From: Adineta vaga
Taxonomy: Eukaryota; Animalia; Rotifera
NCBI GenBank assembly: GCA_021613535.1
Contig: CP075493.1
Location: forward strand, 17,050,001 to 17,114,000
DNA: 64,000 nucleotides
Direction of reading: 5' to 3'
Position numbers and translations under genes: made by a program. The notes beneath the pieces are model-generated. The model was not told the origin of the DNA. It did not search any database and saw only the letters and a list, made by a program, of their open reading frames with translations. Shown here in pieces: positions 14,174-57,695 of the stretch. The first letter of the stretch is position 1, and each line of letters begins with the position of its first letter.

Positions 14174-14555
14174 CAAGGGGGAAAAAGCGAAAAGTCGGTA
14201 CTCCAGTATACTCTTTGTACTCCCTCGGTAAGTTATCAGTATCCTTGAAATTTTTCTTAGTGTTTTCAAGTTCACCAGTGACCAGTGTTACAGTGCACCC
14301 GCTGGAGTACAATGTAACTAACACTAGCGAGCAGAAAGCCTCAAATACTCCAAAATACTCCAGTTTCGAAGTATCATGGAGTATTTGAACATTTCTATTC
14401 GCTAGGTTTATTTGCATTGTACTCCAGCGGGTGCACTGTAACACTGATCACCGGTGGACTTGAAAATACTGAAAAACCTCTCAAGAATACTCATAATTTA
14501 TCGCGGGAGTACAAAGAGTATACGGAAGTACCGACTTTTCGCTTTTTCCCCCTTG
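14174..14555. mobile_element. Foldback MITE with CAAGGGGGAAAAAGCG TIRs (copy 1)
   Basis: Long TIR beginning CAAGGGGGAAAAAGCGAAAAGTCGGTACT. A near-identical copy lies at 38046-38429 in the opposite orientation. TSD not resolved. Confidence 0.85.
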
Positions 14556-15065
14556 GGATAGGTGAGTGTAGGTAATCTTATCTTTCTTCACCCGTACCCT
14601 CAAAACCAGTTGAAGAGAATTGTCTTTCTCTGGTTAATTTATGAATAGCGTCGATATTCATCCATAAATGTTTTTCAAGTTCATCAGCTTTATTTGTTGC
14701 TATTGGTATTGAAGTTCCATTGTAACTATTAGTATCACCAGGATTAGCAAATTGATCTTTCATAGATTTATGTTTCTTTTATAAAGGCTCTAAAACTATT
14801 ACAGTGTTATTGATTAAATCCTAGTATCTCGTTTGATCGTTCATGTATATAAAGGTGTACCACATGGTTAGAATGCGTCGTATCGAAGTTACTAATTTCG
14901 ATATAACATATAAGAGTTCAGTTCAAAGTAGAATACCTGAATTTGAACTGAACTCTAATCCATTCTCCGATTTATACATGAAAAAGAAGAACAATGTTCT
15001 ATGGTGAAAAATAAAAGTTTTACTGTCAATTAGGAAACATGTAATAGGCAAGTGGTCTGTGCATT

Positions 15066-17150
15066 TCACAGAGCCTGTTTGACCTGTATGACGTATTTGC
15101 TTGGTCTGTCACAGGTTTCAAAATAACGGTCTGTGCTTGTCGTAGGCAGGCAGGCGTCATGACTTGTTTGAATCTCTTTTTTATCCTCATTTTGATCTTT
15201 CCAAGGTATCACATGTCCATCCTCTTTTTCATACATATTAAGATCACCAATGTATATGGAAATGAGCTTTGATTCGTCCAATGCTTTATGTGCTTGTTGC
15301 ACTGCTTTGTGATATTCTTCAGTATTTCGTTGATTAGAAGGAAATGATTGATCGACTATTTTATCTGCATAACAGTAGGCTTCTTCTTTTCGTCCCAATG
15401 TTTGTAATGATAAAGCGATAAAATAGTACGTAAACGTGATATCTGTATGTAATGATGGAAGAATAACGAGCAGAATATCAAGTGCACGATGATAATAAAT
15501 TAGAGCTTCGTCATCTTTTTCTTGTTGAGACAAAATATAAGCAATATTCTTATATCCTTCAGCAATTTTATTTTGATCTACTGGAGATAGACTTAACTGA
15601 ATATCTAAAGAACGCTTGTAATAGTCAAGAGACATGTCTAGATTGTCCTGACTAGCATAAATATTACCAATATTATCATAGCATTCACTGACAAATGAAT
15701 CTTCATGATAATGCTCTACTTGGATACAATCAACTGCTTTCTCACAATATTCGAGCGCTTGATCATATTTTTTCATCTCGTAATGTAATTTACCCATGTG
15801 ATTAAGTGCTATTGCGTTTTGTTTTGCATCTTTAATTCTTTCCAACGCTTTTTTATAGAACTCGTTAGCCTTCTCTTTTTCGTTCATATGAGACATCAAA
15901 TGTCCTAGCATGAGTAAAGGACCATTCGGATCATAGATATTTCTTTGTATGAAATTGGACAACTTTTTCATTTGAGGATCTGCATCGGATGTTAATTCTA
16001 GTTCAACTTGCCATAATCCCTTCTCTATCTGTTCAACAGATAACATTCGAAAGACGGTACCCATTGAGAACAGAAATTCACTCTCAGCTCCTTCAAAGGT
16101 ACTTTGTGTATCAGTACTTGCAACGGCAATATCTAAGTTCATTGTTGAATCTAGATGAATACACATAAAAACGGCTGTGATTTCTTCATTTCCAGAAGCA
16201 AACATTCGAGCAACATTGTGATCACCAGTAGTAGAAAGAAAATTCGAAATAGAAACAAGTCCACCTACATTTGATGCAAAGCGTTCAAATGTATCGTTCG
16301 GCATGCTAAGACCACGAAAAAGAACAGAAGGAAGTGTGAGTTCGGATTGTTGAGCAAGACTACGAAGTTGCTGATCGAGATGTCGTATAACAACTCGCAT
16401 AGCATAGATAGCATCAATCTCCAGCGTTCTTAATGCTTTATTAAGCATTCTGTATAGAAATGAATCACGTGTGTACCATTCGATACTATTTTCTGCACAA
16501 TATTCTCGCTCGAAGTCACCAATTTTCTTTAGTTCACTAACATTACCTTCATAAATTGTTCGACAATATACAAGCATATCATTCATATCTGTATCTGTCA
16601 TTTGAAGAATAATGTTCTTTATTATTTGAGTGTACATGAAACTTGATTCTTGCTTATTTTTTAGTTCTACACTTGTGGTTGTTTGATTTTGAGCAAATTC
16701 GAAACCAATCATATTTCTATCTGCTTGAGATATACTATCTTTTAATACTGCATTCATTGATTCAATATTTGTGAAGATACCCTGTACTTTGCGATAATAA
16801 TTTATTTTCTGTTGTTGTGTTTCTTTGTCAAGGTTCAAAATAAATATTGATTCGACTTGAACATATGAGTGAAGTTGCAGAATATTCTGTTCATCAAATA
16901 ATTCCGAAATAATAATAAAGATTTTTTCATGTTTGATTGTACTAATAAACTGAATACAGTCATCGATATTAAAAAAAGTATAAATATCATTTATAATTCG
17001 TTGTAATTCTTTTTCTTCAGCATCTTCTATTGGCCTACCAAGCCATACAAGAACAAAATTTTCTACATTAAATCGGTAACGTTCACGAATTGAAGCAGAA
17101 GACTGTACGATCTGTTCATTCGATTGCTGTACATTCTTTTCATTCAGCAT
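15066..17150 (-). CDS. ADP-ribosyltransferase (R-S-E type) + TPR repeat protein, intronless
   Basis: WYTRDSFLYRMLNKALR, LFRG, FLSTT and ESEFLF catalytic motifs followed by TPRs; 694 aa. Confidence 0.85.
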   Translation of the reverse strand: MLNEKNVQQSNEQIVQSSASIRERYRFNVENFVLVWLGRPIEDAEEKELQRIINDIYTFFNIDDCIQFISTIKHEKIFIIISELFDEQNILQLHSYVQVESIFILNLDKETQQQKINYYRKVQGIFTNIESMNAVLKDSISQADRNMIGFEFAQNQTTTSVELKNKQESSFMYTQIIKNIILQMTDTDMNDMLVYCRTIYEGNVSELKKIGDFEREYCAENSIEWYTRDSFLYRMLNKALRTLEIDAIYAMRVVIRHLDQQLRSLAQQSELTLPSVLFRGLSMPNDTFERFASNVGGLVSISNFLSTTGDHNVARMFASGNEEITAVFMCIHLDSTMNLDIAVASTDTQSTFEGAESEFLFSMGTVFRMLSVEQIEKGLWQVELELTSDADPQMKKLSNFIQRNIYDPNGPLLMLGHLMSHMNEKEKANEFYKKALERIKDAKQNAIALNHMGKLHYEMKKYDQALEYCEKAVDCIQVEHYHEDSFVSECYDNIGNIYASQDNLDMSLDYYKRSLDIQLSLSPVDQNKIAEGYKNIAYILSQQEKDDEALIYYHRALDILLVILPSLHTDITFTYYFIALSLQTLGRKEEAYCYADKIVDQSFPSNQRNTEEYHKAVQQAHKALDESKLISIYIGDLNMYEKEDGHVIPWKDQNEDKKEIQTSHDACLPTTSTDRYFETCDRPSKYVIQVKQAL

Positions 17151-17597
17151 CTATCTATATATATAAAGAAGACAGTCTGTCTGTCTGTTCGTTATGCATT
17201 CAGTCCCTGTAATAGCTAGGGTGTGGGTGTGGGTGTGGATTTAAAAGGAACAGAGCTATATGTCGTCTGCTTAGCGAGACAAGACCAGTATGAAAGAATC
17301 AATGAAGAGATGTAAAAAGTTCTGAAAAAAGAGACCTGGTGCATGACGCGAAAAGGGATATAGGAGGTACCCCAGTACGGAGGAGAAAGACGTGTGGAAG
17401 ACAGGTAACGCGAACTGAGTGACGATCTGAAGGCTTACATTAACACTAGCTAAGGCAGGACGGGAAAGGAAGGTGTAAGGATTTTTTGATACACGAAGGG
17501 TAAATACCAATGGAGAGGTCCGGTGGGTGATGAGAAGAGCACTGTTGTAGATGAAAAACTGAAATTGCGTCCTCTTTGCAGCGGGTATCTCCGCTAG
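17150..17597 (+). mobile_element. Non-autonomous Helitron
   Basis: 5' TCTATCTATATATATAAAG plus (CTGT)n; 3' GC hairpin AGCGG-GTATCT-CCGCT and terminal CTAG; inserted between A and T with no TSD. Confidence 0.7.
17218..17238 (+). repeat. One-armed telomeric tract D inside the Helitron
   Basis: AGGGTGTGGGTGTGGGTGTGG. Confidence 0.8.
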
Positions 17598-17906
17598 TAT
17601 TTAATAAACAACAGAAATCTCATTCGAAATAATCATGAAATTCAGTTGTCTTGTTTACTTTATAAGTTTAATTTTTACATATGTGGAGAAAAGAATGTGC
17701 CAGAAAAATAAAAAACGAAAAAAAGTCTCATGACACATTTATAAAAACTACCATGTGTACACAACGCATGTGATGGCGTTTGTAGTGATTTTTTCGCAGT
17801 AACGTCATTACTGAGTCGCACTACAACTCATAAAAAGATGTTTAATGATAAGAATTAAAACATCGTCGTTTAACTGCAGTAGTGTCAAACTTGAAACCTG
17901 AATTCA

Positions 17907-18750: not shown

Positions 18751-19987
18751 TATGGCATATTCGATTTCATTACCTGCAAGAGTAAGTAAATGAACATTTG
18801 TTGAGAAGGAAATGGAATATTTTCATATAGATAACTACTGCTTTATCTGTAACAGCATCTTCAGAAACGTTAGTATCAACAACAGCTAGTGATAATATCA
18901 AATTCAAAAATGATTTCATTTCCAAAATATCGACAATGAGAAATGAATCATTGAATAATCCTGTTCTTACATTAGAACGATATGATGAAACAGTTAAAGT
19001 AATTCGAAGAGAAATGATAAAGAAATGTCATTATTAAAAACTTACGATGTAATTAATCTTGGTAATCAAGATAAATCAGTTAAGAAAATTTATGAAAGAG
19101 AAGATACTACAATTAAATATTATGTTCCGCTAAGTGAAATTTATGATGTAATTAGAATTGCTCATTCAAATATAAGTCATCATGGTATGAAATATACTTT
19201 AAAAGAAATTAAGAGACGATGTGCGAATGTTACTGGAAAACAAGTTAAATTATTTATTTCTAATTGTGAAGAATGCAAAATGAAACGTTCTAAACCTAGA
19301 AACTCATCAAAATTAGTGATAAATCCGATTCTTTCAAATTATTTTATTAATTCTCGTGGTCAGGTTGACCTTATTGACATGCAATCGTACCCCGACGGAC
19401 CGTTTAAGTTTATATTGAATTATCAAGATCATTTTACGAAATTATGTGTTTTACGACCTCTTAAAAAAAAAACAACAGCAGAAGTCGCTTAGCATTTATT
19501 AAATATTTTTGCGATATTTGGTGCACCACTTATCTTACAGTCAGATAATGGAAGAGAATTTACCGCTCATGTCATTGAAGATCGTCAATAGCAAACCACG
19601 ACATTCACAGTCGCAGGGATCTGTCGAGAGATGTGATCAAGACACGAAACAGTTGTTAGGTATGTCAGAATGACATAGTTAATGCGCAATATTTTATTTT
19701 GCTATTTAGGAACATGGATCCGTGAAAATAATTCCACAAGATGGTCTGAAGAAATGGGCTTTGTACAGTTTCAAAAAAAAATTTGTATCCATCGAGAATT
19801 AAATAATAGTCCATATTCCGTTTTATTTGGGAACGAACCAAAATTAGATTTATCCTCAACATCTTTACATCCATTTGTATTTAATAATATAAGAACAGAA
19901 GAAGAATTAAATATTGTTCTTAATAGGACACGTGATAGTGATTCTAAAGTTTCTGATGATTTACAAGCGACAAAAGGGTATTACTAA
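18751..19987 (+). mobile_element. Degraded KRBA2/SCAND3-like DDE integrase (Ginger-type DNA transposon)
   Basis: HHCC zinc motif, RGQVDLIDMQ, YQDHFTK, FGAPLILQSDNGREF, PRHSQSQGSVER. In-frame stop and frameshifts. 3' part ends near half-junction E. Confidence 0.8.
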
Positions 19988-20046
19988 TTTATGCAAACAG
20001 CACAAACATCCAACTCTTTAAGAACGCGCATAACTTCTGCTGACAA

Positions 20047-20064
20047 ACACTCACACCCTCAAGA
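20047..20064 (-). repeat. Half junction element E
   Basis: ACACTCACACCCTCAAGA. Confidence 0.7.
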
Positions 20065-20169
20065 TGGCATAGTTGACTCGTAAGACGGTTTGACTATCAT
20101 AAGATTTTCTTCTTGGTTATATAATTATTAATCGATAATAAAGATAATAAATCGTCTTGATTAAAAATA

Positions 20170-20230
20170 TTGAGGGTGTGGGTGTGGGTACAGCATCGAT
20201 CAGACACTCACACCCACCCCTTTCTCAAGA
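20170..20230. repeat. Telomere-repeat junction element F
   Basis: TTGAGGGTGTGGGTGTGGG-TACAGCATCGATCAG-ACACTCACACCCACCCC...CTCAAGA. Confidence 0.85.
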
Positions 20231-20250
20231 TATTAGAATTTCATGTCATG

Positions 20251-21360
20251 ATAAATATTGTTTTGACTACTTTAGCTTTTTTGATTTTTTTAGTTGCAAC
20301 ATTTTAAACCACTACAAATGGTTGTGCTCGTATTCATCAAATGAAACTATTTTGGTTAAATTTTTTATTTGTTAATAAATCCATTTTTATGAGAACCACA
20401 ATTTAAAAAGCAAAGTAAAAATATTAATAAATTGCAATTTCCTCATCCATTCACAATAGAATGTAGTTAGTAAAATTATACTAAGAGAAAGTATTGAATA
20501 AAAAAACAGGATATTATTAGGTTCTCATACAAATAACACACTATTTCGTACAACTAGTAGAGATAAATAATATTATAAATAAAGAAAATAGATTTGTTCG
20601 TCTCTATCCACTAATAACTTTAGTATTTCCGTCTGGTGATGACATTATTGGTTTTGCAACTCCAAAAACAACATTAGCGTTACTCGCCATAACTCCTCTG
20701 TATGTACCGACTTGATTGTCTCTTGTTTCTTCTGTACCATCAGAATATTTAATAGTTAGGTGAGATGTAAACGGAACTTCAACCGTTCCTTCTATAACAA
20801 ACATTGATGCATCTATGGTCGAATTTGCTGGTACTAGCACTTCTAATGTATATTCGTTTGATTTTTCTTCGGTTGTTTGCGAGCCGTATGAAAATCCTAC
20901 TGTGATACTTGCACTAACTTTCACTGTGCCTTCAGCAAGTATGGGAAATCCACATTTCAATGTGGTCTCTACGCCAACCTAAAATGGAAAGTATATAGTA
21001 ACAAAAAGAAAAGGTTCATGAACTATGAATAATGCCATCAGTTCTCATAAGGCATACGCTTGATGCATATGTTTTAGTTTTTTATTCAATAGTTTTAAAA
21101 TTTCTACCGATATTTTAGTGACCTATTGTAATAGTTCATTTTAATATATATAATCGAACAAGAATCTAGTTATCTAGCAATCTCAGTCTAAAAAACGATT
21201 ATAAATGTGTGAGTGCGATGTCTCTTCAATCTTTCATTATACCAATTAAATTCTATAGTTTGAAATAATTGAGAAAAATTCTTTTAGTCTGTGAAGATTT
21301 CACTTACTGACAGTTCAGCTGAGAAAGTAAACGATTGAGTACGACTAGTTTTATAGGTAA
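20251..21360 (-). pseudogene. 5'-truncated duplicate of the aerolysin-like toxin gene (3' UTR, last exon, last intron, end of the previous exon)
   Basis: High identity to 28706-29991. Homology stops exactly at TATAGGTAA|GGGTGTGGG. Confidence 0.9.
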
Positions 21361-21403
21361 GGGTGTGGGTGAAAGTGAAGAAGATATACCCACACCCTCA
21401 AGA
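21360..21403. repeat. Telomere-repeat junction element G
   Basis: AGGGTGTGGGTG-AAAGTGAAGAAGATATA-CCCACACCCTCAAGA. Confidence 0.85.
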
Positions 21404-22070
21404 TCAAATCGAAGTTCTTCGAGGTTATTAAATACTTTACAGAATTGTTCCAAATCTTCTAAATTCTCATTAGTAAAACATCCAATACGTAATTTCTTAA
21501 TGGATTTGTTTAAATATTCGCATAATTCATCATCACGGAGATAATCTATTGATACTTTTGGATGAATCTCGAGTGATGATAACTATGATGCCGCTTTTAA
21601 TATATCTTTTAATATAGCTGAACTTTCAACCCATACATAAGACATAGTTAAATGTTTGATAGTTGATAAATTAACGATTTTAAAAAGATGTTTTGTATTT
21701 TGAGTAGTCATTTTGTAATCTTCTTGCTTTCACGGTCCAACTTCGTCTGTAATACATAATGAAATAACACTCGGAAAATGATACTGACTCTTCTGTTTCA
21801 ACATTGCAGGAAAATACGTTAAATATGTAACAAAATCGAATGTGTTTACATGTTTTATTGATTCATTTATATATTTGTTAGTTTCTCCTGTATATTGAAG
21901 GGTATCGAATGCATATGGTATTGCATAAATTGATCTTGAATCTGTAGATATAAAATAATCTGTATACCAATGATGTTTTTTGCACCAAAAATCATTCTGA
22001 AATTGATTGAAAATTTCAAAAATATTATTTAATTCTGAATCTGAATAAATGTTACTGCTTTACTAATACT
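21404..22070 (-). pseudogene. Internal fragment of an F-box/LRR-like gene bounded by junction G and half-site H (22072-22082)
   Basis: FQNDFWCKKHHWYT...IYAIPYAF and LSTIKHL...ILKAAS..LSSL motifs typical of bdelloid F-box proteins. No start codon; stops present. Confidence 0.55.
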
Positions 22071-22326
22071 GACACCCTCAAAATAAAGAACGTGATGAAA
22101 GCGAAATCCTGACAAAGGAACACAAATAGAAAAAAATCAAACTAATCATGATTTATCCACTGACGCAAATCCTATATTTGTTAACAATGGAAAAATTTCT
22201 ATTTGATTTTAAGAAAAAACACGTTCCAGTATGAATACATCAATGTCTATCAAATCATATTTTGATTCCTTTTCTAACAAATTTCTTTTTTTTTATCAAT
22301 TACTTTAAAATTATTTTCTAGACAAA

Positions 22327-25300
22327 ATGTGGAATTTAAATCATTTTATCATAATTTTCCTTCTTTTTCTCATTTTCAACAATGAAGCATTAGGTAAGTC
22401 ATTTTACCGATCACTCATATTCATTATTCTCTTTACGAAAATTGTTTAACATAAATATTTTAGCTACTTCAACTAATCAACCAAACTTATCTACAACAGC
22501 AGTTTGGGATCGTAATGGAATCACGATTGCTAACCGTTCGATTGTTGGGGACTATCCTCGAGTTATTTTTGTCGATATCAACAATACAATCTATGTCACT
22601 AATCAAGGAAAGATATTGATATGGCATAACGATAGTATCAATCCAACAAAGATCATGCCAGTAAATTTTTCAAGTTCTATGGGTTTGTTTGTAACTTTAA
22701 ATGGTAATATTTATGTTAATGACGGTTTGTTCAGTGGTCAGGTGAAGAGATGGACACTAAAGACAAACACTTCTGATATTGTCATGAATGTGTATTCATC
22801 ATGTTATAGTCTATTTGTTGATATCAATGACAATTTGTATTGTTCAATACATATGTATAATCGAGTAGTGAAAAGAGACTTGACTAGTTCTTCTATGGAA
22901 ACGATCACGGTTGCTGGAACAGGTCGTCCAGGATATGAGTCTAATGAACTTGAGAACCCAAGAGGAATCTTCGTTGATACAAATTTCGATTTATATGTTG
23001 CTGACTGTTTCAATAATCGAGTTCAATTGTTTCAATTAGGTGAAACAAATGCTATCACAGTTGCAGGACAAGGATCGGTAGATTCAGCTCTTGTCTTGTA
23101 TTGTCCAAATGATATAATATTAGATTCTGACAAATATCTATGGATTTTAGAACAAACGAATTTTCGTATAGTCAGAGAAGGACCGTATGGTTTTCGTTGT
23201 ATAATTGGATGTTACAGACAAGGCTCCCAATCCAATAGATTGGATAGTTCGTTTACTTTTGGTATGAATGGTTTTGGTAACATATTCGTTGCTGATGTAG
23301 GAAATCATCGAGTTCAAAAATTTCAATTGATAAAAATCACTCCTGGTAGGTAGACGAAAAACAATAGCTGAATAAGGTCAATGATTTTACATTGAAAAAA
23401 CATTTTTCAGAAGTTCGGTTTCTTTTTTTAATGTTTTAGCTGTTCCATTTAATCAACCGCGATTTTGTCAAACAGCAACTTGGAATCGTTACGCAATCAC
23501 AATTGCTAACCAATCGATCGTTGGAAAAGATCCTACAGTTATGTTTGTCGATACAAAAAATACAATTTATGGCGCTAATTATGAAAAGAGCGAAATTTTA
23601 ATATGGCATAACGATAGTCTCACTCCGACAAAAATCATTTCAGGTAACTTTTCACATCCATCCTCTTTGTTCGTAACATTGAATGGTGATATTTATATTG
23701 ATGATGGTGATGTGGGTAATCAAGTAAAGAGATTGAAATCAAACACAAATACTTTTGATAATGTCATGAATGTGTATTCATCATGTTATGGTCTATTTGT
23801 CGATATCAATGACAACTTGTACTGTTCAATGTTGTATCATCATCAGGTGGTGAAAAGAGACTTGAATAGTCCTTCGATGGAAATGATCACGGTAGCTGGA
23901 ACTGGTACGAAAGGATTTAATTTTAGTGAACTTAATGGTCCACTTGGAATCTTTGTTGATATAAACTTGGACATATTTGTGGCAGATTGCTCGAATCATC
24001 GAATTCAGTTGTTTCAATCAGGTGAAAAAAATGCTAAAATAATTGTAGGATTTGACTTCGCACTATCATTAGTAAAGGATATTTCATTGAGTTATCCAAG
24101 CCATGTAATACTAGATTCTGACAAATATTTATTTATTGTGGATCGTGCGAATTCACGTATAGTTGGAGATGGACCACATGGTTTTCGATGTCTTGTTGGA
24201 TGTGATAAAGAAAGTATTCAATCCAATCAACTTAATTTGCTAACTACTGTTAGTTTTGATACTTTTGGTAACATGTTTGTTGTTAATCAAGTAATGAATC
24301 GATTCTTAAAATTTCAGTTCTTTGAAAATTCTTGTAGTAAGTAGATTTTATTATTAATAGAGTTTATCTCAAAACTTCCTCCTTGTTTAATAGCGTCTCC
24401 ATTCAATCAACCAAAATTTTGTGCAAAACCTGTTTGGGATCGAATTGGAAAGACTTTTACTACTGAAATCACACTTGGTATAAATCCTACTGCTATTTTT
24501 ATTAATGAAAAAAATTCAATTTACGCTATTAATCGAGAGAAGAAACAAATTTTAATTTGGCATAAAAATAGTACTGATCCATCAATGATCATTTCTACTG
24601 ATTTCTATAATATATCTTCGCTATTTGTTTCATTAAATGATGATATTTACATTGATAATGGAGTGAATGGTCGAGTAAAAAAGTGGATATCAAAAAGAAA
24701 TACATTTGTTAATGCGATGAATGTTTTCTCACCTTGTGTTAGTTTATTTGTCGATAGAAATGATTATTTATATTGTTCAATGTCTAATTTTCATCAAATT
24801 ATCAAAATATATATGCATGAACGTGCTATGACATGGATCGCCGTGGCTGGAACGGGTGAAGCAGGATTTACTTCTTTGGATCTTGATCACCCCTACGGCA
24901 TCTTTGTTGATTTAAAATTTGATTTATATGTGGCAGATTGTGGAAATAATCGAATCCAACGATATTTATCAGGAAATATAAATGGTATTACAGAAGTAGG
25001 AAGTACATCAGCACGACACACACTTGCACTTTCATGTCCAACTGAAGTTACACTCGATTATCAAGGATTTTTATTCATTGTCAATTCGAACAATCATCGT
25101 ATTCTTCGATCAGGATCCAATGGTATCCATTGTATTATTGGATGTCATCATAGTGGTTCCACATCCACTCAATTGTTATTTCCATTTAATATTGCTTTCG
25201 ATAGTTTTGGAAATCTATTTGCTGTAGATTCAGGAACTAATCGAATACTAAAGTTTCAATACTTAAAAAATTCTTGTGGTAAGTAAGACTATACACATGA

Positions 25301-27490: not shown

Positions 27491-28400
27491 TTAAACGTAG
27501 AGGTTTTTTATGTGTGATCTCGCGCAGTGGAGTAGTGTCAAACATTTAATTAATAAAAACTTTTCCACCACCTGCTTTTCGTCTAACACATTGATTAAAA
27601 CTAACATGCTCACATTATTGTCGAAAACGCCAACATCTCTGATCCGCCCAACCATTATAAACACATTCTTCACTCAAATACTTTCCATTATAAACAGCTG
27701 CATCACGAAAAGCTGGTTGTACCTGAATCAATGGATGATCATGTGGAATATTCCTTTGTTATTTATTGAAAATAATTTATTCATATTCGATTGCCAAGCA
27801 ATTGAAATCAAAGATGCTTGCCGAGAATATGCTATAAAATCAACTGACATTGTTGGTGATGCACGTTATGCCCAAAGATCATAATAAAAATCTGTTTGAG
27901 ATAAAATTATTGATTGTAAAGTTTGGCGATGAAACTTTATACTTAAATATAATTTTCATCGTTGATTTCCTACAGTATAAATATCAACATGTTTGGAATC
28001 ATTTAATGCCCATTGTTGAAGAAATCTTAATGTACCATCTTGAGAATCTGATTCACCTAGATAAATTTTATAATTTCCGAATGAACTTCCCATAGAAAGA
28101 ATATTATTTTGAAAATGAACAAGATCTTTTTCGACATTTCGACAACAAGCTGTTATGATTAACGTCAAATATGTTAAATTAACTTTATCAATGGTTATTA
28201 TTGGTGAAGGAATTAATTGATCATTTGATGATGTTTGATTATATTCCCAAAATGCTTTCGATATTATAATGGAGACACTTGAATAAGTCGATTATATATC
28301 TACGAATTATCATAATAATTAAGATCATAAACATTATCATTGATATCATACAATAATTCCTTACAATTTTTATTCGATAATTTAGTCGAGAAAATCTCAT
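27491..28400 (-). pseudogene. Glycosyltransferase (CAP59/GT-A-like) pseudogene
   Basis: IITACCRNVEKDL, IYLGESDSQDGT, YYDLWA*R, V(Q)PAF..AAVY motifs, with frameshifts. Confidence 0.6.
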
Positions 28401-28660
28401 TTTATTATTTAACCTATATTTTATTCTCGTACTTGATCAATTGAAATATGCAACGAACATATTATTTTATCTTAACATCGAATATAAAAACTGTCATAAA
28501 ACTTTCACCGATGTACTTTTTTTTCTTCTCTTATTTGCACGATTCATTGATTCATATACGTTCTCTTTCTTTCACACGTGATAGAAAATAAGTAACTAAC
28601 TACACCGAAGACTATTTTCATTAAATATTTATTTTACACTCTAACGATCGATCAGATACA

Positions 28661-28704
28661 TCTTGTGGGTGTGGGTGTTAGTATTAAATCTATCTAATAC
28701 CCAC
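28661..28704. repeat. Telomere-repeat junction element J
   Basis: TCTTGTGGGTGTGGGTGT-TAGTATTAAATCTATCTAA-TACCCAC. Abuts the start of the duplicated toxin 3' flank. Confidence 0.75.
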
Positions 28705-29065
28705 TATAAATATTATTTTGACTACTTTAGCTTTTTTGATTTTTTAGTTGCAATATTTTAAGCAGCTTCAAATTAAATAGTTTGTGCTCGTATTCATCAA
28801 ATGAAACTATTTTCGTTAAATTTTTTATTTGTTAATAAACTCATTGTTATAAGAACCACAATTTAAAGAAAACAATGTAGAGATATGAATACATTGCAAT
28901 TTCCTTATCCACTCAAAATAGAAAGTAGTTATTAAAATTATTCTAAGAGAAAGCATTGAATAAAAAAATAGGTTATTTTTAGGTTCTCATGCAAATAATA
29001 CACTATTTCGTACAACTAGTAGAGATAAATAATATTATAAATAAAGAAAATAGATTTGTTCGTCT

Positions 29066-32000
29066 CTATCCACTAATAACTTTAGTATTTCCATCTGGTG
29101 ATGACGTTATTGGTTTTGCAACTCCAAAAACAACATTAGCGTTACTGGCCATAACTCCTCTGTATGTACCGACTTGATTGTCTCTTGTATCTTCTGTACC
29201 ATCAGAATATTTAATAGTTAGATGAGATGTAAACGGAACTTCAACTGTTCCTTCTATAACAAACATTGATGCATCCATGGTCGAATTCGCTGGTACAACC
29301 ACTTCTAATGCATATTGGTTTGATTTTTCTTCAGTTGTTTGTGAGCCGTATGAAAATCCTACTGTGATACTTGCACTAACTTTCACTGTGCCTTCAGCAA
29401 GTATGGGAATTCCACATTTCAGTGTGGTCTCTACACCAACCTAAAATGGAAAGTATATAGTAATAAAAAGAAAAAATGTTCATGAACTTTGGATAATGCT
29501 ATCAGTTCTCATAAGGCATACGCTTGATGCATATATTTTAGTTTTTTATTCACTAGTTTAAAATTTCTACAAATATTCTAGCGACTTGTGTGGATTATAA
29601 TCTCAAAGGAAATGCTCATAATATAATAAATTATTTGGTCAAATATATGTTGTAATATATGAGAAGGAATTAAATACGGTACGAAAATATAAAGTTAACT
29701 GTAAGAACTCAGAAAATTTCTCTATGAGACATTTCAATCACTCGATCTAATCGAATAAGGATCTGGTTATCTAGCAATATCAGTCTAAAAAAACATTAGA
29801 AACTATTGGAAATATCGTCGATATGTATTATAAATGTGTGTGTGTGCGATGACTCTTCAATCGTTCATTATACCAATTAAATTCTATACTTTGATATAAT
29901 TGAGAAAAATTCTTTTAGTCTCTGAAGATTTCACTTACTGACAGTTCAGCTGAGAAAGTAAACGATTGAGTACGACTAGTTGTATAGGTAAATGCATAAG
30001 TTTGCTTTTGATTTAGTGGCGAATAATTTGTCAATACTGTGTTGAACACTGTTCGTGGAGTACCAGATTGTGTTATTTGAGCATTAGTTAAATCGTAAAC
30101 TACAGATGAAACAGTGTATTGTTGTTCTTCTTGAGTCCAATAAAATCTGATTTGATTGAGATAATTGCCAGATCTTCCACTTATATATGATAGGACATAA
30201 CCTGGATACTGTTCAACAAAATCCTTATTTGATGCGGCAGCACCACATCGAGGGCTTTTTCTTCCTTTGTTGGTAGTGAACATTAAGCCGCTCACAGCAG
30301 TGCCGACACTTCCTTCCACTTTTACAATCCGTTCATCGGCATCTATACTAAATTTACATTCGGATCCCCCAGTACCACCATGTTGCGATGCTTGACGTAT
30401 TATTCCACTAGCTGCTCCATAATTTATTTGAATAGCATCGATACTACTACCAGCTTTTATTATTATTAGTCTGGGAGTATATACTGCATCATAGCCAATC
30501 TCATCTATATCATTAAATGCATTGTCTGTATTGAAACCATGTGGATCACCTTTCAGTAGGTCCTTTAGCACTAAAATAAAAACAAATACAATAAACATAT
30601 TACGTATCGCTAATTATTACATTCATTTCTTATTTGTCATCTTTTATACAATATTAATTAAATATCAGATGATTATTAATAAGTACTAGTGAAAAATAAA
30701 ATTCATTCAGACTTACTTTGTGAACTATCACAGTATCCAGTCATGACACCAACTTCAGGGGTATCAGCTAATGCTGTTGTTAGTAAAAAGCATTTCTTTG
30801 CATTCTTAGCAGCACTTGCTGTATAATAGTTCCATACTTTGCAACTAGACATTTTGTCACATTCGCGCATACATGCTTCAGGGGATGCCTTGTCAACACC
30901 AGCATAACCATCCATCACTATTCCTCCTACAGTATTCATATTGCTCTTCATTTTTTTGCACGGTTGTTTAACAATATTTTCTAGAAACACAAACATAAAT
31001 AATTAAGATTCATTTTAAATTATTAACATTACTTAATACAAATATATTTTATGAACTATTAGAATAGGTATGGAAAAATAAATAGTTGAGATCCGTATTT
31101 TGATTAGAACTCATTTTTCTTTTCCATACAATTTTAGCTACTGACGACGAAAAACTACTTTTAAGAGTAAGATATGCTGATTTAGAAAGACGATGTTTGA
31201 AATCTTAATGACCAGAGTGCAAAGCGAATTCGTCTATCTGAAACACAGTTTTCATGTAACTACTATTATTGCTTACCAGGTTGTTTTTTTGCGTAGACAG
31301 AGAAGCCTTTTTGGTAATTTAGTGAAGGTTGACCACCATTGCACTCATGAAGATAACAATTTCCATTACTATTATCTATATCGAATGAATCGCAGCCTGC
31401 TTTTACATCACAAGCAGCTTTGCACCTAGCAAGACCCAGAGGGCCAGAACTGACTGTAAGAGGACACCTACTTCCATAAATATTGAAATCAGTCGCAATT
31501 AGCATGTAGTTGTCCGCTGAAGTAGTTACTAGAATAAAATGGATAATTAAAATTTAAAATCAATTGTATATGTACATGCAGGAAAAACAAGATTGCATTC
31601 TTCAGAATGGTGCTTCACATCGGGTATTTTGGATATGTGAAACTGCTGATATATATATGCACAACAGTGTGTAAAATATACCTTTAGTTTTTAAGCATAT
31701 ATACCTACGGCTTGCTTCGAAGCTGGAACATTATCGTCATCGTTCTCGTCTTGAGGGTGAGGATGAGGAGTGAAGGTGGAGATTAGTTCTACTACGTGAG
31801 AAATATCACATCTCCATCGTCCGTCTCCAAAAAAACCATCTACACTCACACCCACACCCATACCCTCAAATCGTTTTCATAAGATTTCTCTTACCTGTAG
31901 TAGTAGTAGTAGTAGTAGTCTTGTAGTATGCTTTTCTATTACTGCTTGGAGAAATATTCGGATATTCTGACGAACATTTCAGAAGATCACATCGAGTCGG

Positions 32001-32869
32001 ACTAACACTGTAGTTTATTCCATTACAATCAGTTGTTGACGAACACTTTTCTTTGCAAGCATCAACTGATAGTATATTGGTTATACCCCAAACAACAGAA
32101 GGACAAACTGCCAAACCAGACTCTGATAACGTCTTCCAACTATCACCTACAAATCAACAAAACAAGATCAAATAGAAATGTATATTATAAGTATTGCTGA
32201 AGTGTTGCATATGGAAGAGTAGACAATAGAATGTTATCGCCTCCTTTAACATGACTACATTGTCCGTATGATAATATCCGCACCGACACCCTCAACTGAA
32301 CTAGAACTTGTCACCCGTTGGAAACTAGTGAATCTTTGTATTGCTTTTTTTTCTCCAAATAACCCTTTCCTCCAGAGATCAATAGAATCAATCCTCAAAT
32401 AGTGCGTTTCTTATAGGTGATGATAAACTGTATTTGCGGGTTTGTTATTGCTCGGAAATTTGTGCCGGTGTGGAAAAATAATTTACTAGATCCAAGTCTG
32501 CATGGGTTATATTCATCGAAGATGCTAACTCAAGGAGGAAAAAGCGAAACTTCATATTTTAAATACTTCATTTCACGTCATCGATTCTTTGGATGAAAAA
32601 GGAAATGATCAATTTGAATGGAAAAACTTACCTGAAGAAGCACGCTCTTGCAATAATGTGCGAACTTCCTCGTTACTGTCTTCATCTTCAAGTGTCTGTT
32701 CTAGAACATGTCGCAATAACATATTTCTCTGCTTATTGTTGCCATACTTGTAACGATCACCTTGCCGACGTAGTGCTTCGATATAAGAGTCGTCTGTTGC
32801 AACTGACGAATGTTTCGCTAAAATTGCAACGAACACCATAATCACTATCACTATAGTGGATGAATGCAT
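29066..32869 (-). CDS. Secreted aerolysin/natterin-like pore-forming toxin: signal/pro exon, 3 PAN/Apple exons, jacalin lectin, aerolysin-type pore domain (6 exons)
   Basis: MHSSTIVIVIMVFVAILA signal; C-x3-C PAN motifs; jacalin GSSIDAIQ..HGGTGG..LMFTTNKGR; S/T-rich beta-hairpin TQSFTFSAELSVGVETTLKCGIP..VVPANS..VPFT. Confidence 0.85.
31749..31870. repeat. Junction element K inside a toxin-gene intron
   Basis: TCTTGAGGGTGAGGATGAGG ... ACACTCACACCCACACCCATACCCTCAAA. Confidence 0.8.
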
Positions 32870-33075
32870 TTGGTTGTTATTTTGGGTGAGGATATAAGAT
32901 AATGCGTCGATTGGTAGAATATCGTTAAATTTATACAATCGGTAAGTAAAGGTGCTCTTTCAACCATACCACGATGTTGTTTCAAAGGAAAGAAAAAGTA
33001 TTGCTAATTAAAATGCGCTGTCTATTCAACCAGAACTCGGTGTTGTTTCGCAAGATTAGAAAAAGGATATTTGTT

Positions 33076-33140
33076 GGGGTGGGTGTGGGTTTGGGTGTGA
33101 GGGTTTGATCGATGCAGTACCCACACCCACACCCTCAAGA
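33076..33140. repeat. Telomere-repeat junction element M
   Basis: GGGGTGGGTGTGGGTTTGGGTGTGAGGG-TTTGATCGATGCAGTA-CCCACACCCACACCCTCAAGA. Confidence 0.85.
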
Positions 33141-33734
33141 TCCTCGCTGAGATCCACATTAGAGCTGAGCATATAATAGAACACACGCCTTGTCCTGCAG
33201 ATAAGGGTTTCAGTTTTAATCCTGTCTTATCCGCTTCACAGGACGAGTGGGTCAGAGCAGTAGGCAGGGCAGGAGGAAAAAGTTTGTCCTTTGCTCACCT
33301 CTGACCAACATCCATTCCATGATAATACTTACTTAATTTGTCTCATTTTTGTTCTGAATTTTATCAGTTGAATTTGGATGATTATGGCATTTGCGATCAA
33401 ACATAATAGTGAGCAAAGTGTCCTTTCGAGCAACTGTCCTAAACCCATTTGCACATCAATCTCATTCATACCTTCAAGAAAAAAATTAAACTTAAAAGAT
33501 ATCATTAGATCATCTGTGTTCGTTATTTGATTATTTTTTGATACTGATGAATTGTTTTCAAATTCACTTGTATCCAATGGATCTTCCCAACATATTAAAT
33601 CACTATCATCTAGTTGTATATCGAGTTCATTACTTGAAGATAAAATATTATCTGATAACCGTTGATTGGTCACAAAAAGACATCTATAAAAGAGGAAAAA
33701 AAGAATATTATTTTAAAAGAAAGAATCAATGTAT

Positions 33735-36944: not shown

Positions 36945-38045
36945 TTGATGGATATCTAAAAGAAATTTCATGACTTAATTTCATTTTAACGAACGATATT
37001 CACTCGAATTGATTCATTTAACAAAATGACTCAAATTCGACTATAATGATACTTTTTATTATATATCGATTCATAGAAATCGTTGACTTATTCAGTATTT
37101 TTTAACCTATAATTTCGTAGATATGAAGTAAATAAAAAATATAATTATATAGTTACTATTGATGTAGAAAGAAGACGAAAAAACCAAGTTACGATATGCA
37201 ATCAAATGAGTAATGGGTAAAAAAAAATGTTTTATATATGTAGTACATAGTTCGAATGAAGTCATCAGTACATTTACAGAAAGAAACGATGTGAGTCATG
37301 GTGTTTGTGATGTATAAGGTATAGTCCTTTACATAAGAACTTTTCCATATACATTCTATATGTGTTTTTCTTTCGTTCTTGTTTTTTTCCTATACATGCA
37401 TATGAGTGAGTTGCAACTTTATTGTACGATTGATTTTTTGACGTGTTTTGCTTTTAACTCCAGTTCTTGTTGACCGATTTAAACTTTTTTTGTTTTATTT
37501 TACTTCTTACCTCATGCTCGTACTGCCATATAATTTCCGAGTCTCTACCTTGCACATTCGTGGAGATATTCGCATTGGAGAACAAAAAAGAAACATTTTT
37601 GGATGACTCATCCAAGCTGAAACTAATTTTTCGAGCAAGGAAAGAGGAATAAAACAGAAAATAAATAGGACGTTTTGTAGAGTAATTTTCAGGCTATCGA
37701 AACATATGATTCATAAATTCATTTTATTTTATTTTTGTGATCCTTTATAGAGGTAATACTTTTACACACACATGTAGCTCCAGACGAAAACCAGCACTGT
37801 CAAATTACAGAAACCAGTTTTGGAAAAAAAGAATCTATCACAAGATAGAGTGTAAAAAACTCTGTCGAAATAGCCTAAAATATTCTAAAAAAAATTCTTT
37901 TTACGGCAAGAAAAACACAGAAACCCTTGTTGTCACTCACTTTGCAGCACTAGATTTTCGGAAGTTTTTTATCAATAGCTTTTGATGTACTTGTCCGATC
38001 TTGTTCAAGCTTTTACCCAAAAAGTTAGTAAACAAAAAGTTCTTC

Positions 38046-38429
38046 CCAAGGGGGAAAAAGCGAAAAGTCGGTACTTCAGTATACTCTTTGTACTCCCACG
38101 ATAAATTATAAGTATTCTTGAGAGGTTTTTCAGTATTTTCAAGCCCACCGGTGATCAGTGTTACAGTGCACCCGCTGGAGTACAATGCAAATAAACCTAG
38201 CGAATAAAAATATTCAAATACTCCATGATACTTCGAAACTGGAGTATTTTGGAGTATTTGAGGCTTTCTGCTCGCTAGTGTTAGTTACATTGTACTCCAG
38301 CGAGTGCGCTGTAACACTGGCCACTGGTGAACTTGAGAACACTAAGAAAAATGTCAAGGATACTGATAACTTATCGAGGGAGTACAAAGAGTATACTGGA
38401 GTACCGACTTTTCGCTTTTTCTCCCTTGG
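38046..38429. mobile_element. Foldback MITE with CCAAGGGGGAAAAAGCG TIRs (copy 2)
   Basis: Inverted near-identical copy of 14174-14555. Confidence 0.85.
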
Positions 38430-41036: not shown

Positions 41037-41268
41037 GAGGGTGTGGGTGCTTGCGTGTGTTTTCTCTTTCATCATCCACACCCACACCCACACCCACACC
41101 CACACCCACACCCACCCAGACCCAGACCCACACCCACCCAGACCCAGACCCAGACCCACACCCACACCCACACCCACACCCACACCCACCCAGACCCAGA
41201 CCCACACCCACCCAGACCCAGACCCAGACCCACACCCACACCCACACCCACACCCACACCCACACCCT
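41037..41268. repeat. Junction element O with an expanded (CCCACA/CCCAGA)n arm
   Basis: GAGGGTGTGGGTG, spacer, then about 180 bp of CCCACA and variant CCCAGA hexamers. Confidence 0.9.
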
Positions 41269-41407
41269 GAATGTAAACAATTAGAACAATTAAATCAAAT
41301 GATTGATATGAGCAAGTTATTAAAGAACTATATTGTATATCGTCAATACGAACGATTTTATATAACAATGGAAATGAATTTAGTTTAATAATTAGAATAC
41401 CATTGAT

Positions 41408-44400
41408 CAGTGTTTTTAATAGACCGTGCCAGCTGTGTGAGCAAAGTACCAGCGGCACGGAGAAATTTGAAAAGGCACGGTATTTGGCACTTTGCTAAAA
41501 AAAATGAGATATCTAGATGGTACTTTGTTAAATGAAAAAGTACCTTGCTTATTGGTTATCATAGCTTATCTATGAATCACTTTTTCCTTCCTTTATTTTA
41601 TTTCTACTTGTAGATGGAGCTAAAATAGTTTATTCTTCCACAAGATTTATTGTTGTTTTTAACTAGACAGGTTATTTAATTCGTTTTTTTCTTACATTTT
41701 TTTCTGGTTTCTCATTTGGTTTGGTGATTTGCTGTATTAATTTTCTCAACGTCTTTTTCAAATCTACGTTGGTATGTGATTATTTCGTTAGATTATTTCG
41801 AACCTTTGTTTTATACTTAGAACTATACAAGTTCGATATTCATTGTATTGAACAAGATATTCAATTCGTTTTTTTATTATTTTATTTCCGGTTTTCGTTT
41901 CTTTGTTGATTTGCGGATTTCTTAGTACTTTGTCGAAGACTAAGTAAGTGCATTTTCGTGATTATTTCATTTTTCTCATTCAGTTTATATTTATAATAGC
42001 TGTCTATGGATCAATCAAATTCTATTGAACTTCTTCATGATAGTTTATCATCTATTGGTATTCAAAAAGATGAACAAAATCTAAATGATTTATTAGCTAA
42101 TAATGGTGAAGTTTCATCTGAAGAAAATGAAATAAGTGATATTGATATTATTTTAACTGGTGTTATTGACAAATGTGCTGATGGAAATCGATTAGATATG
42201 TTATCAGATGTAACCATTAATCACGTTTGTGATACTTCATTAAAAAAAGGAAATCCAGCAGTAAAACAAACAACACATAATTCGAAACGATCAGAAAAGG
42301 AGAAACGTCGTTATTTGTCGTCATGGGAATCAGAACCAGTATGTTTTTATAAAACTTATTATTATGATATGCACAATGTTATGCTCGAAAGAAAAGTATG
42401 TTGGTTATATAAGAAAACCGATAAAAATGGTGATGACCGTATTTATTGTAAACTTTGTGCAAAATATCCAGGAATAAAATCAACAAATCGAAAAAGTAAT
42501 CCTTGGTGCACAGATGGTTATAGTATATTGAAAATGGCAAAAATCAAAGATCATGCAGCTAGTAATACTCATAAACAAGCTGAACAACTTGAATTACAAA
42601 CATCATCTAAAGTTCAACCGAACTGGTTGGTAGCACAAAATAAAGAACGAAGCAAACATGAGCTTTCAATTCAAAACTTAATTTTATCTTCTGTATATTT
42701 ATGTCAACAAGATCAATCAATAAATTCCTTTGGAAAATTATGTGTATTGATTGAAGCACTCGGTGTTAAATTATTACCAGCAGAGTTAGGTGGAGTTTCC
42801 TATCGAAACGATAATGCAGCTATAGAATTTTTGCGTCATGTTTCTGCTGGTTTACATGAAGAATTAGTACAAAAACTCAACCAAAGTCCATCGATCGGTA
42901 TAAAAAAATTACTTAAATTACCAAATATTTATTTTCTTGTTTTTTTAGGTTGGATGCTTGATGAAAGTACATCACGTACTGTTGAAAAAAGTTTAATAAT
43001 GTATGTTAGGTATTTCGAGAACAATGAAGCTAGGATTCAGTTTTATGGGATTTTGAAGTTAGATAGTGATGGTACAGCACATAACATTGTAGAATCTATT
43101 AAATTAATTTGGCAAAAAGATGGTTTTAATCCCGAAAAGACTTGTTGGTTTTCTACTGATAATGCTGCAACTTTCACAAGTACTAATTATTTATTGAAAT
43201 AATAAAATCTAATCTAATTGTTGAAGGTATAAATAATGGTGTTGTGACTAAATTGAAACGTGATTTTGGTCTTGCATTCATGGAATTAAACACTTGTGTA
43301 GCACATTCTTTTGCATTAGTAGGAAGTCAATCTGGTCTTTTCAAAGAAGGTATAAATTATCTAGTTTTATACATTGTTAAACAAGTTATTCTTTAGATGG
43401 TGGTAAACTGAAAAAACGAGATTTAATATGTAAAATGGAAAATATTATTGGAAAGATTTATTTATATTTCGGATCAAGTGCCATTCGAACTTTTAAATTG
43501 AAATCATGGCAAAATCTACTCGATATTCGTGAACTGAAATTTAAGAAATTGTTTCACATTCGATGGTCATCTATTAGAGATTCGATAAAACCAATTATCT
43601 TGAATGTTACACCAAGTAAATTGTTTTGAAAATTATTTAACATAATGTTATTATACTTATTATTTTATCATAGCAAAGCAAGCACTGTTAGCAACTTTAG
43701 AAACAATCAAATTTAACACGAAATTACCTGTCGATGATCGTGAATTTGCAGGAGAATTATTGGATTCGATACTTGATGATCAATTTTTGTTCATCCTCCA
43801 TTTTCACTATGACTTACATGAATGTGTTTTAGGTAAGATAATCTTATTACTTTTTAGAATTGTATCATTTGTTTTATAGGAGAATTAACAAAGATCTTAC
43901 AAGATGATGATTTACCATATTTTACCATGATGAACATATTAAATGAAAAGAAAAAGATATTGAATAACTGGTTATCTCAAAAAGATGAACTAGAACCTAT
44001 ACTTGGTCCTTCATTGAATGAATATGCAAATTCTACAGAAAAAAATCAGTCCTATGGTGCATTTACAATCATTACTGGTGATAGATCGAAACTTTTAAAT
44101 GAATGTTTTACACATATCAATCAATTATTAATAGAAATTGATAAAAGATTTAAACCTTCTTATGTACAACAACGTTTTATTGTTTTATTCGAACCTGATT
44201 ATTTAATTCAGCACAAAAGTGAGGTTGATAAACCTGGTTACGGTCGACAAGTACTTGATTTTCTTCGTATTAAATACCAACATTTACCTGAATTAAATAT
44301 GGATCAATGTCGAATTGAATGGGAAAAAATGAAGGTATCATTAAGTGAATTTGTTTTAAATAATCAAGAAAAAAATTCTCGACGAACATTTTGGAAATCT

Positions 44401-45454
44401 TTTATATTATGGAAAGAACCACTTGATAATTGTTTTCATGAACAATATAAAAATATCTTGATATTATTATCTATCTATTTGATATCATCACTTAGTTCCA
44501 CTGAATGTGAACGTGGTTATTCTGTTGCAAACAGAATTCAAACAAATGGACGTTCACGAATTATGATAGAAACACTTGATGTCTTGATGAATGTTCGATT
44601 ACTTTTACCAGATGATTTGAGAAGGTAAAAATATTGCCTGGTGCTGTGTCAGAAGACGCCGTTAAATTCTTAAATTAATTTTAGTGATCGATGTCGACAA
44701 GTAATTCAACAAGCATATAATTCATGGAATGGTATTAACGAAAATCGTCGAATCTTTAGCACAAAATTGATTATTGATGTACCAGATGATTATGAACCAA
44801 TAAAACACTCGCGTGCTACACATAAACGAAAACAAGAATCAGCAACAACTGACATTAGTCTACCTGAATCAAAAAAAAGAAAGTTAAAGATATAAAATGT
44901 GCTAATCGTTGTGGAAAATGTATCACTGATGATGATCCAGAAGAAATCCACGCCATACAATGTTGTCATCAGCAGGAATATTATGATTGGATTGAAGCTA
45001 ATTGTTCTCGTTGGTTATGCAATGTATGTCGTGTAAAATTAGGAATATCTATAGATACATTATCATGGTTTTGTGAAGATTGTATTGACATGCACGCAAA
45101 CGAATAATTGATTAGCGTTTTATTTTTTTGTTTGATATTGTATATAGTATGTTTACCATATTGTGGTTACTATTAGTTCATGAAAATATTCTTAATTTAT
45201 AGTCAGATATTTATGTATTTATTGTTGTTGGTGTTGATGTGTTTTACTTTATATTTGTATTATTTTTTCCATAGAGCTATCTCGTTATGAAAATATACTG
45301 ATAGTAAAAACTTTCACTATGTTTTCCTGTTATTTTTTTAAACTTTGGTACGGTATGGTACTTTGCCACTTAAAACAAAGTACCACATGGCACTTTGACT
45401 ATACATTGAACGTGCCAGTAGGCCTTCTGCTCCGGATTCCTATTAAAAACACTG
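41408..45454 (+). mobile_element. Full-length hAT transposon (ZNF862-like transposase)
   Basis: 15-bp TIR CAGTGTTTTTAATAG; 8-bp TSD CCATTGAT at 41400-41407 and 45455-45462. Confidence 0.93.
42006..45107 (+). CDS. hAT transposase, multi-exon, with a C-terminal PHD-like Cys cluster (frameshift in the A-run near 44875)
   Basis: CKLC..H..H zinc finger, MLDEST, STDNAA, CVAH, IRWSS, SSTECERGYS dimerisation motif. Confidence 0.8.
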
Positions 45455-53777: not shown

Positions 53778-54716
53778 AGGTACCTGTAATTTATGCAATC
53801 ACCCGTAATCACCCAACCTTTTGAGATACGATAAAAGTGAGTCTGACAACCACCTACAACTCGATGAGTTATGTTCACAAACAGCCACAATCACCCACAT
53901 TTGATGAGTTTTAGACGAAATAAACCGCCCACAAAGGTGAAAAAAATAGTCCTCTTCAAAACAACCATCCAGAATCTCTCTTATAGTTCCACAAACGTCA
54001 GAAGTTGTCTCCTACAACCACCCATAGAATTACAAAAGCTACATTTTCTCAAGCACAAGTAGTGGGTTTACATAGGCCTGTAAGGATCTGAATGGGGGTG
54101 TGGGTGAGTGTGCATATAGTTCTCAGTTTGGCGTATAAGCGCGCAAAGGGTGTCCACATTCGCTTGCCTGATATTCGCACTAACATATGATGTTGAATAA
54201 GTATGAGTACGGTTATAATTAGTGAAACTATCAGTGTGGGTGTGGGTGTACTTGTACATCTCGTCGATGAAGAGTGAGTTAATTAGAATGTGTGAATTGG
54301 TTAAGTTTTGGGAGTGAGGAAGGAAATGTGGACACCCTTTGCGCGCTTATACGCCAAACTGAGAACTATATGCACACTCACCCACACCCCCATTCAGATC
54401 CTTACAGGCCTATGTAAACCCACTACTTGTGCTTGAGAAAATGTAGCTTTTGTAATTCTATGGGTGGTTGTAGGAGACAACTTCTGACGTTTGTGGAACT
54501 ATAAGAGAGATTCTGGATGGTTGTTTTGAAGAGGACTATTTTTTTCACCTTTGTGGGCGGTTTATTTCGTCTAAAACTCATCAAATGTGGGTGATTGTGG
54601 CTGTTTGTGAACATAACTCATCGAGTTGTAGGTGGTTGTCAGACTCACTTTTATCGTATCTCAAAAAGTTGGGTGGTTGTGGTGATTGCGGGTGATTGCA
54701 TAAATTACAGGTACCC
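53778..54716. mobile_element. MULE-type foldback element
   Basis: Near-perfect arms of about 385 bp (53778-54160 and 54325-54716); 9-bp TSD AATGTAAGG. Confidence 0.9.
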
Positions 54717-55693: not shown

Positions 55694-55768
55694 GGTCGTT
55701 CTAGTCTAACTGGCTTAGGACATCTGCCCAGATAGCAGAAGATGTGGGTTCGAATCCCACGAAGATCA
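55694..55768 (+). tRNA. tRNA-like gene with a non-canonical anticodon loop (AGA), inside a MITE
   Basis: A box TAGTCTAACTGG; anticodon arm TCTGC-CCAGATA-GCAGA; T arm GTGGG-TTCGAAT-CCCAC; acceptor GGTC(G)TTC/GAAGATC; T5 terminator. Confidence 0.6.
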
Positions 55769-57129: not shown

Positions 57130-57695
57130 TACAGAGTAGCACCGCTTATGGCTGATCTAAATCCCAAGAAGGTGATGCTGAGCGTTTGGTGGGTGTCAAT
57201 AGGATTATTCATTGGGAAATTCTTCCAAATGGTTGCAACATCACTGCTGATCTCTACTGTCAACAACTGCATCGGGTTGCCAAAATACTCAAGGGAAAGC
57301 AGGATCGAATTTATCATTTGCATGAAAACTCAAGACCCCATGTTGCAAAGTCAATCTTTGAAAAATTATTGAAGCTCGGATGGATTACCATTCCTCCTCT
57401 ACCTTATTCTCCTAACTTAGCTCCAACGGACTATCATTTGTTTCGTTCTCTTTTTCATCATTTGCATGAGAAAAAGGTCGACGCCGAGAACGACGTGAAA
57501 ATGGATATCGCCAACTTCTTTGATAACAAATCCTAGGTCTACTACGAACATGGGAACTGATCTCTGCCAGAGCGTTGCGACAAGTCATATATAGTAGTGG
57601 TGCATATATCACTGAAAGCTAGTTCTACTGTTGAAGTTAAAAAATACTAATAAAATTTTTGAAAAAAACGCAAAAGCGTTGTTGTCGACCTAATA
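57130..57695 (+). mobile_element. 5'-truncated mariner transposon
   Basis: KKVMLSVWW, YCQQL, HENSRPH, PYSPNLAPTDYHLFRSL; 3' end ...GACCTAATA-TA. Confidence 0.85.

Follow-up and report, generated by a model that had tools for sequence, protein, structure and literature searches.

The nearest known kind of element to those described here is the vertebrate TERC-ITS, short interstitial telomeric repeats that lie at breaks and whose flank derives from a known RNA (Sola et al., 2021; PMC8537989). In the passages cited, type B loci show read-through past the template, and type C, with one of 41 loci, consists of head-to-head repeats beside sequence from immediately downstream of the template (PMC8537989). 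In Adineta vaga, a bdelloid rotifer, the telomeric repeat is given as TGTGGG (PMC8494291, PMC7943196), and A. vaga lines are described in which telomeric repeats lie at the breakpoints of deletions (PMC13564844). These neotelomeres share with our elements the species, the TGTGGG repeat and the position at breakpoints. However, they cap persisting broken ends in experimental lines and are not rejoined, two-armed scars; the cited account makes no mention of a leader (PMC13564844).

We analyzed 64,000 nucleotides of A. vaga DNA (the window, in which positions are counted from the first base) and found 23 arms made of TGTGGG repeats. As in TERC-ITS, the repeats match the telomeric type of the host: a count of GGGTGTGGGT in the window gave 41 matches, compared with a mean of 0.00 in 100 shuffles. 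Insertion at a break relative to an uninterrupted homolog was seen for the natterin-like, LRR-type, integrase, and Helitron-like sequences discussed below, the comparators being paralogs or homologs rather than empty orthologous alleles. By analogy, the rotifer elements appear to work like a TERC-ITS, the RNA match aside. Unlike TERC-ITS as reported, they are dense (~23 arms in 64 kb) and include joints that link unrelated genes, and whereas head-to-head repeats occur at 3 of 41 vertebrate loci (PMC8537989), 8 of the 9 close opposite-strand arm pairs here face inward, with the G-rich arm followed by the C-rich arm.

The literature searched, with some key papers and supplements outside its scope, yielded no description of a two-armed bdelloid form. 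Fusion-type interstitial telomeres, such as human 2q13, have the same G-rich then C-rich polarity; in contrast to those whole-chromosome fusions, the arms here measure 10–30 nt, sit within genes, and have a leader of non-telomeric sequence. MITEs and telomere-bearing transposons such as ciliate TBE1 also have short inverted ends with telomere-like repeats, but our elements have no fixed ends, no clear target duplication, and mostly unique interiors, and their polarity is opposite to that of an element carrying its own telomeres.

A natterin-like gene and its partial copy

An intact, two-exon gene on the minus strand (29066..30598) is 100% identical to P0002, whose source name is Natterin-like protein, Adineta vaga (221 of 221 and 124 of 124 residues). 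Pfam returned a Jacalin domain (E 3e-18) and an ETX_MTX2 domain (E ~1e-5); the predicted product has the lectin and aerolysin-type domains of natterin-like proteins. According to the original prediction, positions 20251–21360 are a copy of 28706–29991, the latter being the matching stretch of this intact gene (copy B, minus strand). MAFFT and self-BLAST agreed, with an overall identity of 92%. Positions 20251–21122 and 28706–29585 are 92.1% identical over 882 nt, and positions 21148–21360 and 29745–29991 are 81% identical when gaps, which lie in the intron, are included, rising to 95% across the ungapped 155-nt end.

Copy A (20251..21360, minus strand) comprises the 3′ part of a natterin-like (jacalin plus aerolysin/ETX-MTX2) gene, spanning approximately residues 203–344, the intron, and 3′ flank. 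Unlike natterin-like proteins, it has neither a start nor the jacalin lectin domain, and it is an ordinary pseudogene piece that serves here as a breakpoint marker. The predicted end of homology in mid-exon at element G was found near codon 203 of 344: homology ends exactly at positions 21360 and 29991, and in the copy this end is at the first base of G, within 1 nt of the element. Up to this point both copies read TATAGGTAA, after which the intact gene continues with ATGC and the copy with the telomeric repeat GGGTGTGGGT. Only 0.12% of the window lies as near to an arm edge as position 21360. No open natterin frame was found across G. At the opposite ends, both copies adjoin elements, as had also been proposed. 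Element F ends ~20 nt before 20251, and the short right arm of element J ends 2 nt before 28706.

In both copies the last exon is open, and between them 10 of 90 synonymous sites and 7 of 282 non-synonymous sites differ (dS 0.12, dN 0.025, ratio 0.21, Fisher p 0.002). A ratio of 0.21 indicates that purifying selection acted on copy A or its source gene during most of the divergence, and thus that it was functional as a paralog well before the break occurred at G. These values do not bear out the proposal that the elements mark the limits of the duplication event; the duplicate was probably not created by the elements and probably predates G. G then records either a break in an old paralog or the taking up of a fragment from a third copy. 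A protein search for a third, intact source of copy A gave only P0002, which is copy B itself, a result that constitutes weak evidence of absence. The left boundary that the two copies have in common is best read as an older scar site that was either inherited by both or broken again in one.

Three PAN/apple-domain exons (30703–32153) that are lacking from P0002 lie on the strand of the natterin-like gene, upstream of it. Element K (31748–31871) is located between two of these exons and is apparently intronic.

Element G and the breaks around it

Element G (21360..21404) is 45 bases long and consists of a G-rich arm with a 1-nt leader, a 17-nt spacer, and a C-rich arm with a 7-nt leader. It folds as a hairpin (z −5.9) and joins the natterin-like piece to a piece of an unrelated LRR-type gene. 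The latter (21403..22047, minus strand) is an internal piece that corresponds to residues 291–505 of the 571-aa homolog P0001 and has two in-frame stops. In a tblastn search with P0001, the only homolog found, these residues aligned at 56%, ending at 21403, the right edge of G, with 66 homolog residues left over; no further parts of the gene were detected in the window. The putative F-box/LRR label is read from the sequence, and Pfam gave no match. At its other end (22047), the piece begins 13–30 nt from element H.

A simple insertion would leave the same gene on both sides. Since two genes flank G, we conclude that it is a rearrangement joint. At the joint, the bases that overlap the leader are A from the natterin end and AT from the LRR end. 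We consider it likely that G is a repair scar, formed when both broken ends were extended with RNA-templated telomere repeats and then joined through short filler. The original prediction was that telomeric repeats are attached directly at a gene breakpoint. It held, and the case is stronger than first stated, because the other arm of G ends a second gene and elements D, E, and H mark more breaks. Plain telomere addition, however, does not describe G, which is a joint of two arms with a spacer between them and a leader that is not telomeric.

The other breaks lie within the same few kilobases. A decayed KRBA2-like integrase gene (18831..19963, plus strand) aligns to residues 11–393 of a 540-aa homolog and breaks off at element E (20047..20065), a single C-rich arm with a 7-nt leader; the last 147 of the 540 residues are absent from the window. 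Firm alignment ceases ~85 nt short of E, and to the eye, similarity in the frame continues as far as E. Element H (22060..22084), a single degenerate C-rich arm, lies beside the 5′ break of the LRR-type piece. Element D (17218..17239), a single G-rich arm, replaces part of a high-copy repeat (17150–17598) that we take from its ends to be Helitron-like. In each run, 14–20 contigs track this repeat to 17218, beyond which their sequence differs from that of the window. Overall, the region from 17.2 to 22.1 kb is a patchwork in which a repeat arm stands at five coding or repeat breaks. For four of these breaks (E left out), 0.1–2% of the window lies equally close to an arm edge. In run X1, the summed contig depth of the Helitron-like repeat was ~4100, compared with ~70 for its neighbours.

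We considered whether E could be the terminal repeat of an integrase-bearing element and rejected this, as E cuts the gene and does not bound it, and the search for a left TIR to match E found none.

Some scar units were evidently copied rather than newly written, which counts against our preferred reading. Element F (20167..20230) and element M (33074..33141), both two-armed and in reverse orientation to each other, have a spacer in common and are alike at 46 of 50 positions of arm and spacer, with unrelated flanks, and in one contig another G-rich arm is joined to the spacer and right arm of G. Element J (28660..28704) consists of a G-rich arm with a leader and, on the right, a short arm mirroring the left arm's end (11-bp stem). 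F aligns to J without gaps, and a 10-nt piece of the F spacer lies just upstream of J. These resemblances, and the single common point at which both natterin copies start beside an element, are what would be expected if older interstitial scars were fragile or recombinogenic and the patchwork at 20–22 kb arose by template switching or ectopic exchange, with units such as M copied into F. As the origin of the joints we regard such exchange as quite improbable. It needs scars inside intact exons, and the intact natterin gene carries no scar at 29991. It also leaves the leader and the polarity unexplained, so that it is possible only as a second step on top of repair by repeat addition and end joining.

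Assembly support came from contigs. The F-to-copy junction (19531–20351) and the J-to-gene junction (27869–28811) were each bridged by contigs from 4 of 4 runs with no differences, and contigs also reach into G from its right side. One contig of 4727 nt begins within G, at 21376, and extends rightward, with 29 letters on the G side, just below the 31-letter rule. The left junction of G has no bridging piece among the 32 contig pieces listed, beside which there are 5216 further pieces, and to this extent the junctions could be assembly artefacts at short repeats. With the other junctions bridged and the two natterin copies differing by 8%, we find that explanation extremely improbable. Between 16500 and 34000, the depth of long window contigs is roughly half that of paralog contigs in runs X2, X5, and X6; in X1 it is not. 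A haplotype-specific region may be the reason, contig depth being a poor measure of copy number.

Leaders, trailers, and spacers of the repeat family

The 23 arms of the window were identified by repeat pattern alone. At least TTGA precedes 7 of them, compared with an expectation of 0.6% (p 9e-11); ATCTTGA precedes four, ten have no leader, and leader lengths range from 0 to 7. We also scanned metagenomes and obtained at least 120 stretches, from which 48 AT-rich loci were kept by eye; the 72 that were dropped were mostly GC-rich or repeated and bacterial-looking. Removal of one homolog left 47 loci with 48 matches, whose bdelloid origin is presumed rather than taxonomically verified.

Among the 48 matches as listed, further leader letters upstream of the search pattern were present at 60 of 97 nested positions, those at which every nearer letter also matched, and at 45 of 191 non-nested positions, where 52 were expected from composition (Fisher p 3e-10). 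As the leader letters were chosen on the tested loci, the nested figure is inflated; the metagenome pattern itself fixed TCTTGA. The non-nested figure is informative, because a fixed end decayed by point changes, or a preferred target, would be expected to show signal at those positions. The nested fall-off of the leader fits truncation and not decay or target preference. In metagenome locus L041, the leader occurs twice, the second time inside the arm, which makes an origin from the target site impossible for the inner copy.

These data bear on a MITE origin, in which the family would have telomere-like terminal inverted repeats and a 2-bp AT target duplication, and transposase acting on one end would have produced adjacent deletions and rearrangements, with elements remaining at the breakpoints. 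A strongly preferred start is present, since among the metagenome matches listed 18 of the 39 that have the A stop at ATCTTGA, and the hairpin anatomy exemplified by G and the shared terminus also resemble a MITE. However, the ends are ragged and nested rather than fixed, as the range of leader lengths in the window shows, G has no terminus of the kind a transposase would need at the junction, and the leader recurs inside the L041 arm. No C-rich arm lies within 170 nt in 28 of 58 seeds, a count that includes loci cut short and misses some degenerate arms; with this proviso, many elements are one-armed, contrary to the MITE reading.

Spacers point in the same direction. In 30 elements they range from 9 to 82 nt and are mostly unique, with a local score of at least 9 in 5 of 435 pairs; contigs contain other copies in the same species, with further differing spacers. 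A MITE family would have near-identical interiors, as F and M do within their unrelated flanks, but that pair is the clear exception. A 9-nt spacer type also recurs and favors the MITE reading. By inspection, no target-site duplication was visible beside 10 window elements, while the long-TIR element at 53779–54716, examined as a control, has a 9-bp target duplication. The fully two-armed loci L075 and L121 have AT at both ends, where a 2-bp AT duplication is possible. Nor is the nearby integrase gene the autonomous partner, being cut by E instead of bounded. On balance, we consider a MITE family unlikely and favor scars left by repair.

Sequence beyond the repeats was constant in a subset of cases. 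Of the 12 continuations after GTG(A/C)GGGT whose first letter is other than G, 6 agree with AAAGAGAAGA in 9 or 10 of 10 letters. One of these six 10-nt trailers is in the window and five come from a single metagenome, three having an equal 9-nt spacer length, and the cases may represent one copied family. A scan of genome contigs with the trailer motif gave three matches, in bacterial MAG records, and a scan of viral contigs gave nine matches; all of these were treated as chance. A second trailer type, AAGAAGA, was found directly after none of 109 arms, and similar words occur inside several spacers.

We also examined where the C-rich arms and spacers come from. Fold-back copying was rejected as a general source of C-rich arms, since stem scores within elements were like those between elements (3.92 versus 3.88, permutation p 0.44, 26 elements); J may be an exception. 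Copying of spacers from within 400 nt was not supported in 8 window elements, the longest match being 6–8 nt.

In the longest scar (41037–41269), C-rich repeats extend for ~190 nt, with CCAGAC variants and an internal duplication of 74 nt that is near-perfect. Toward the inner end of arms, the variant GTAGAT recurs in L021, L022, L034, L040, and L078 and in the window at 754–807 and 31748–31871. Most repeat variants resemble G-to-A changes.

A possible repair route and its genomic setting

The breaks and the anatomy of the arms are observed, and from them we infer the priming, the enzyme, and the order of events. Double-strand breaks would first have occurred in two genes, one natterin-like and one of the LRR type. 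Each 3′ end would then have primed on an RNA, pairing through 1–2 nt of microhomology at a variable position 3′ of the template, such that 1–12 nt of flank were copied before the first GGGTGTGGGTG. A few repeats would have been added, sometimes with re-priming in the flank or reading beyond the far boundary. Finally, end joining with filler would have ligated the two G-rich overhangs nose to nose. The one-armed elements D, E, and H would correspond to breaks at which only one end was extended.

The most likely writer of the repeats is telomerase, because the number of repeats varies and the sequence after them is mostly not constant. Bdelloid TERT was reportedly described in 2007, alongside Athena elements. 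In one survey, as cited, TERT was not found in A. vaga (PMC5405514). This survey, the cited evidence that endonuclease-lacking Penelope-like elements prime at breaks and chromosome ends in bdelloids (PMC3846280), and Athena fragments described at breakpoints (PMC13564844) would suit an Athena/Terminon enzyme that copied the end of its own RNA at breaks, making the arms extremely short retroelement insertions. We think this very unlikely. Copying of an element RNA predicts constant sequence after the repeats, but here the constant part precedes them and the later sequence is mostly unique, and no reverse transcriptase gene was detected among 16 ORFs scanned against Pfam.

The scars may perhaps also disclose part of the RNA that was copied. 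In a single pass of the G strand, they read leader GAACTATCTTGA, core GGGTGTGGGTG, and trailer AGGGTAAAGAGAAGA, and we offer, tentatively and at somewhat less than even odds, the idea that they spell the predicted template region of the bdelloid telomere RNA, which would be the reverse complement in one ~38-nt run, and that the healing and shuffling of broken genes in bdelloids is routine work of an enzyme whose priming takes place outside its template. A literature search returned no bdelloid telomerase RNA, and an Rfam scan of the window gave only one match, which is tRNA-like and weak (55695–55768, 38.7 bits). Neither an RNA nor a gene with the predicted template region came to light, and no empty allele was observed; a metagenome leader probe recovered nothing in 4 runs, two of them presumably RNA, a result that tells neither way. 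Should the repair reading be correct, a telomere-writing enzyme would be a routine participant in break repair and gene shuffling at bdelloid chromosome ends rather than a rare accident as in vertebrates. Every scar would mark an old break, making past rearrangement countable. The leader and trailer would provide a probe for the bdelloid telomere RNA and a way to tell telomerase from an Athena enzyme as the maker of TGTGGG.

The window contains transposon remains, TPR genes, and NHL-like genes. Three tandem genes at 22394–25286 are presumably NHL-repeat-like, and a gene at 15066–17150 has ART and TPR domains in Pfam. NHL-repeat-like and ART/TPR genes are typical of bdelloid variable regions. 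Remains of hAT-like and mariner-like transposases were identified with Pfam at 42000–44628 and 57156–57536. This content fits the variable subtelomeric regions described in the cited passages (PMC8494291, PMC7943196), and the window would occupy such a chromosomal position. Two 385-bp copies of a palindromic MITE (14174–14558 and 38044–38429) are 97% alike. The palindromic element that served as the control above (53779–54716) has ~390-bp arms that are 97% alike, and we assume it to be Mutator-like. Each of its arms holds a telomere-like G-rich arm, and the G-rich arm in its loop (54234) is preceded by part of the extended leader.
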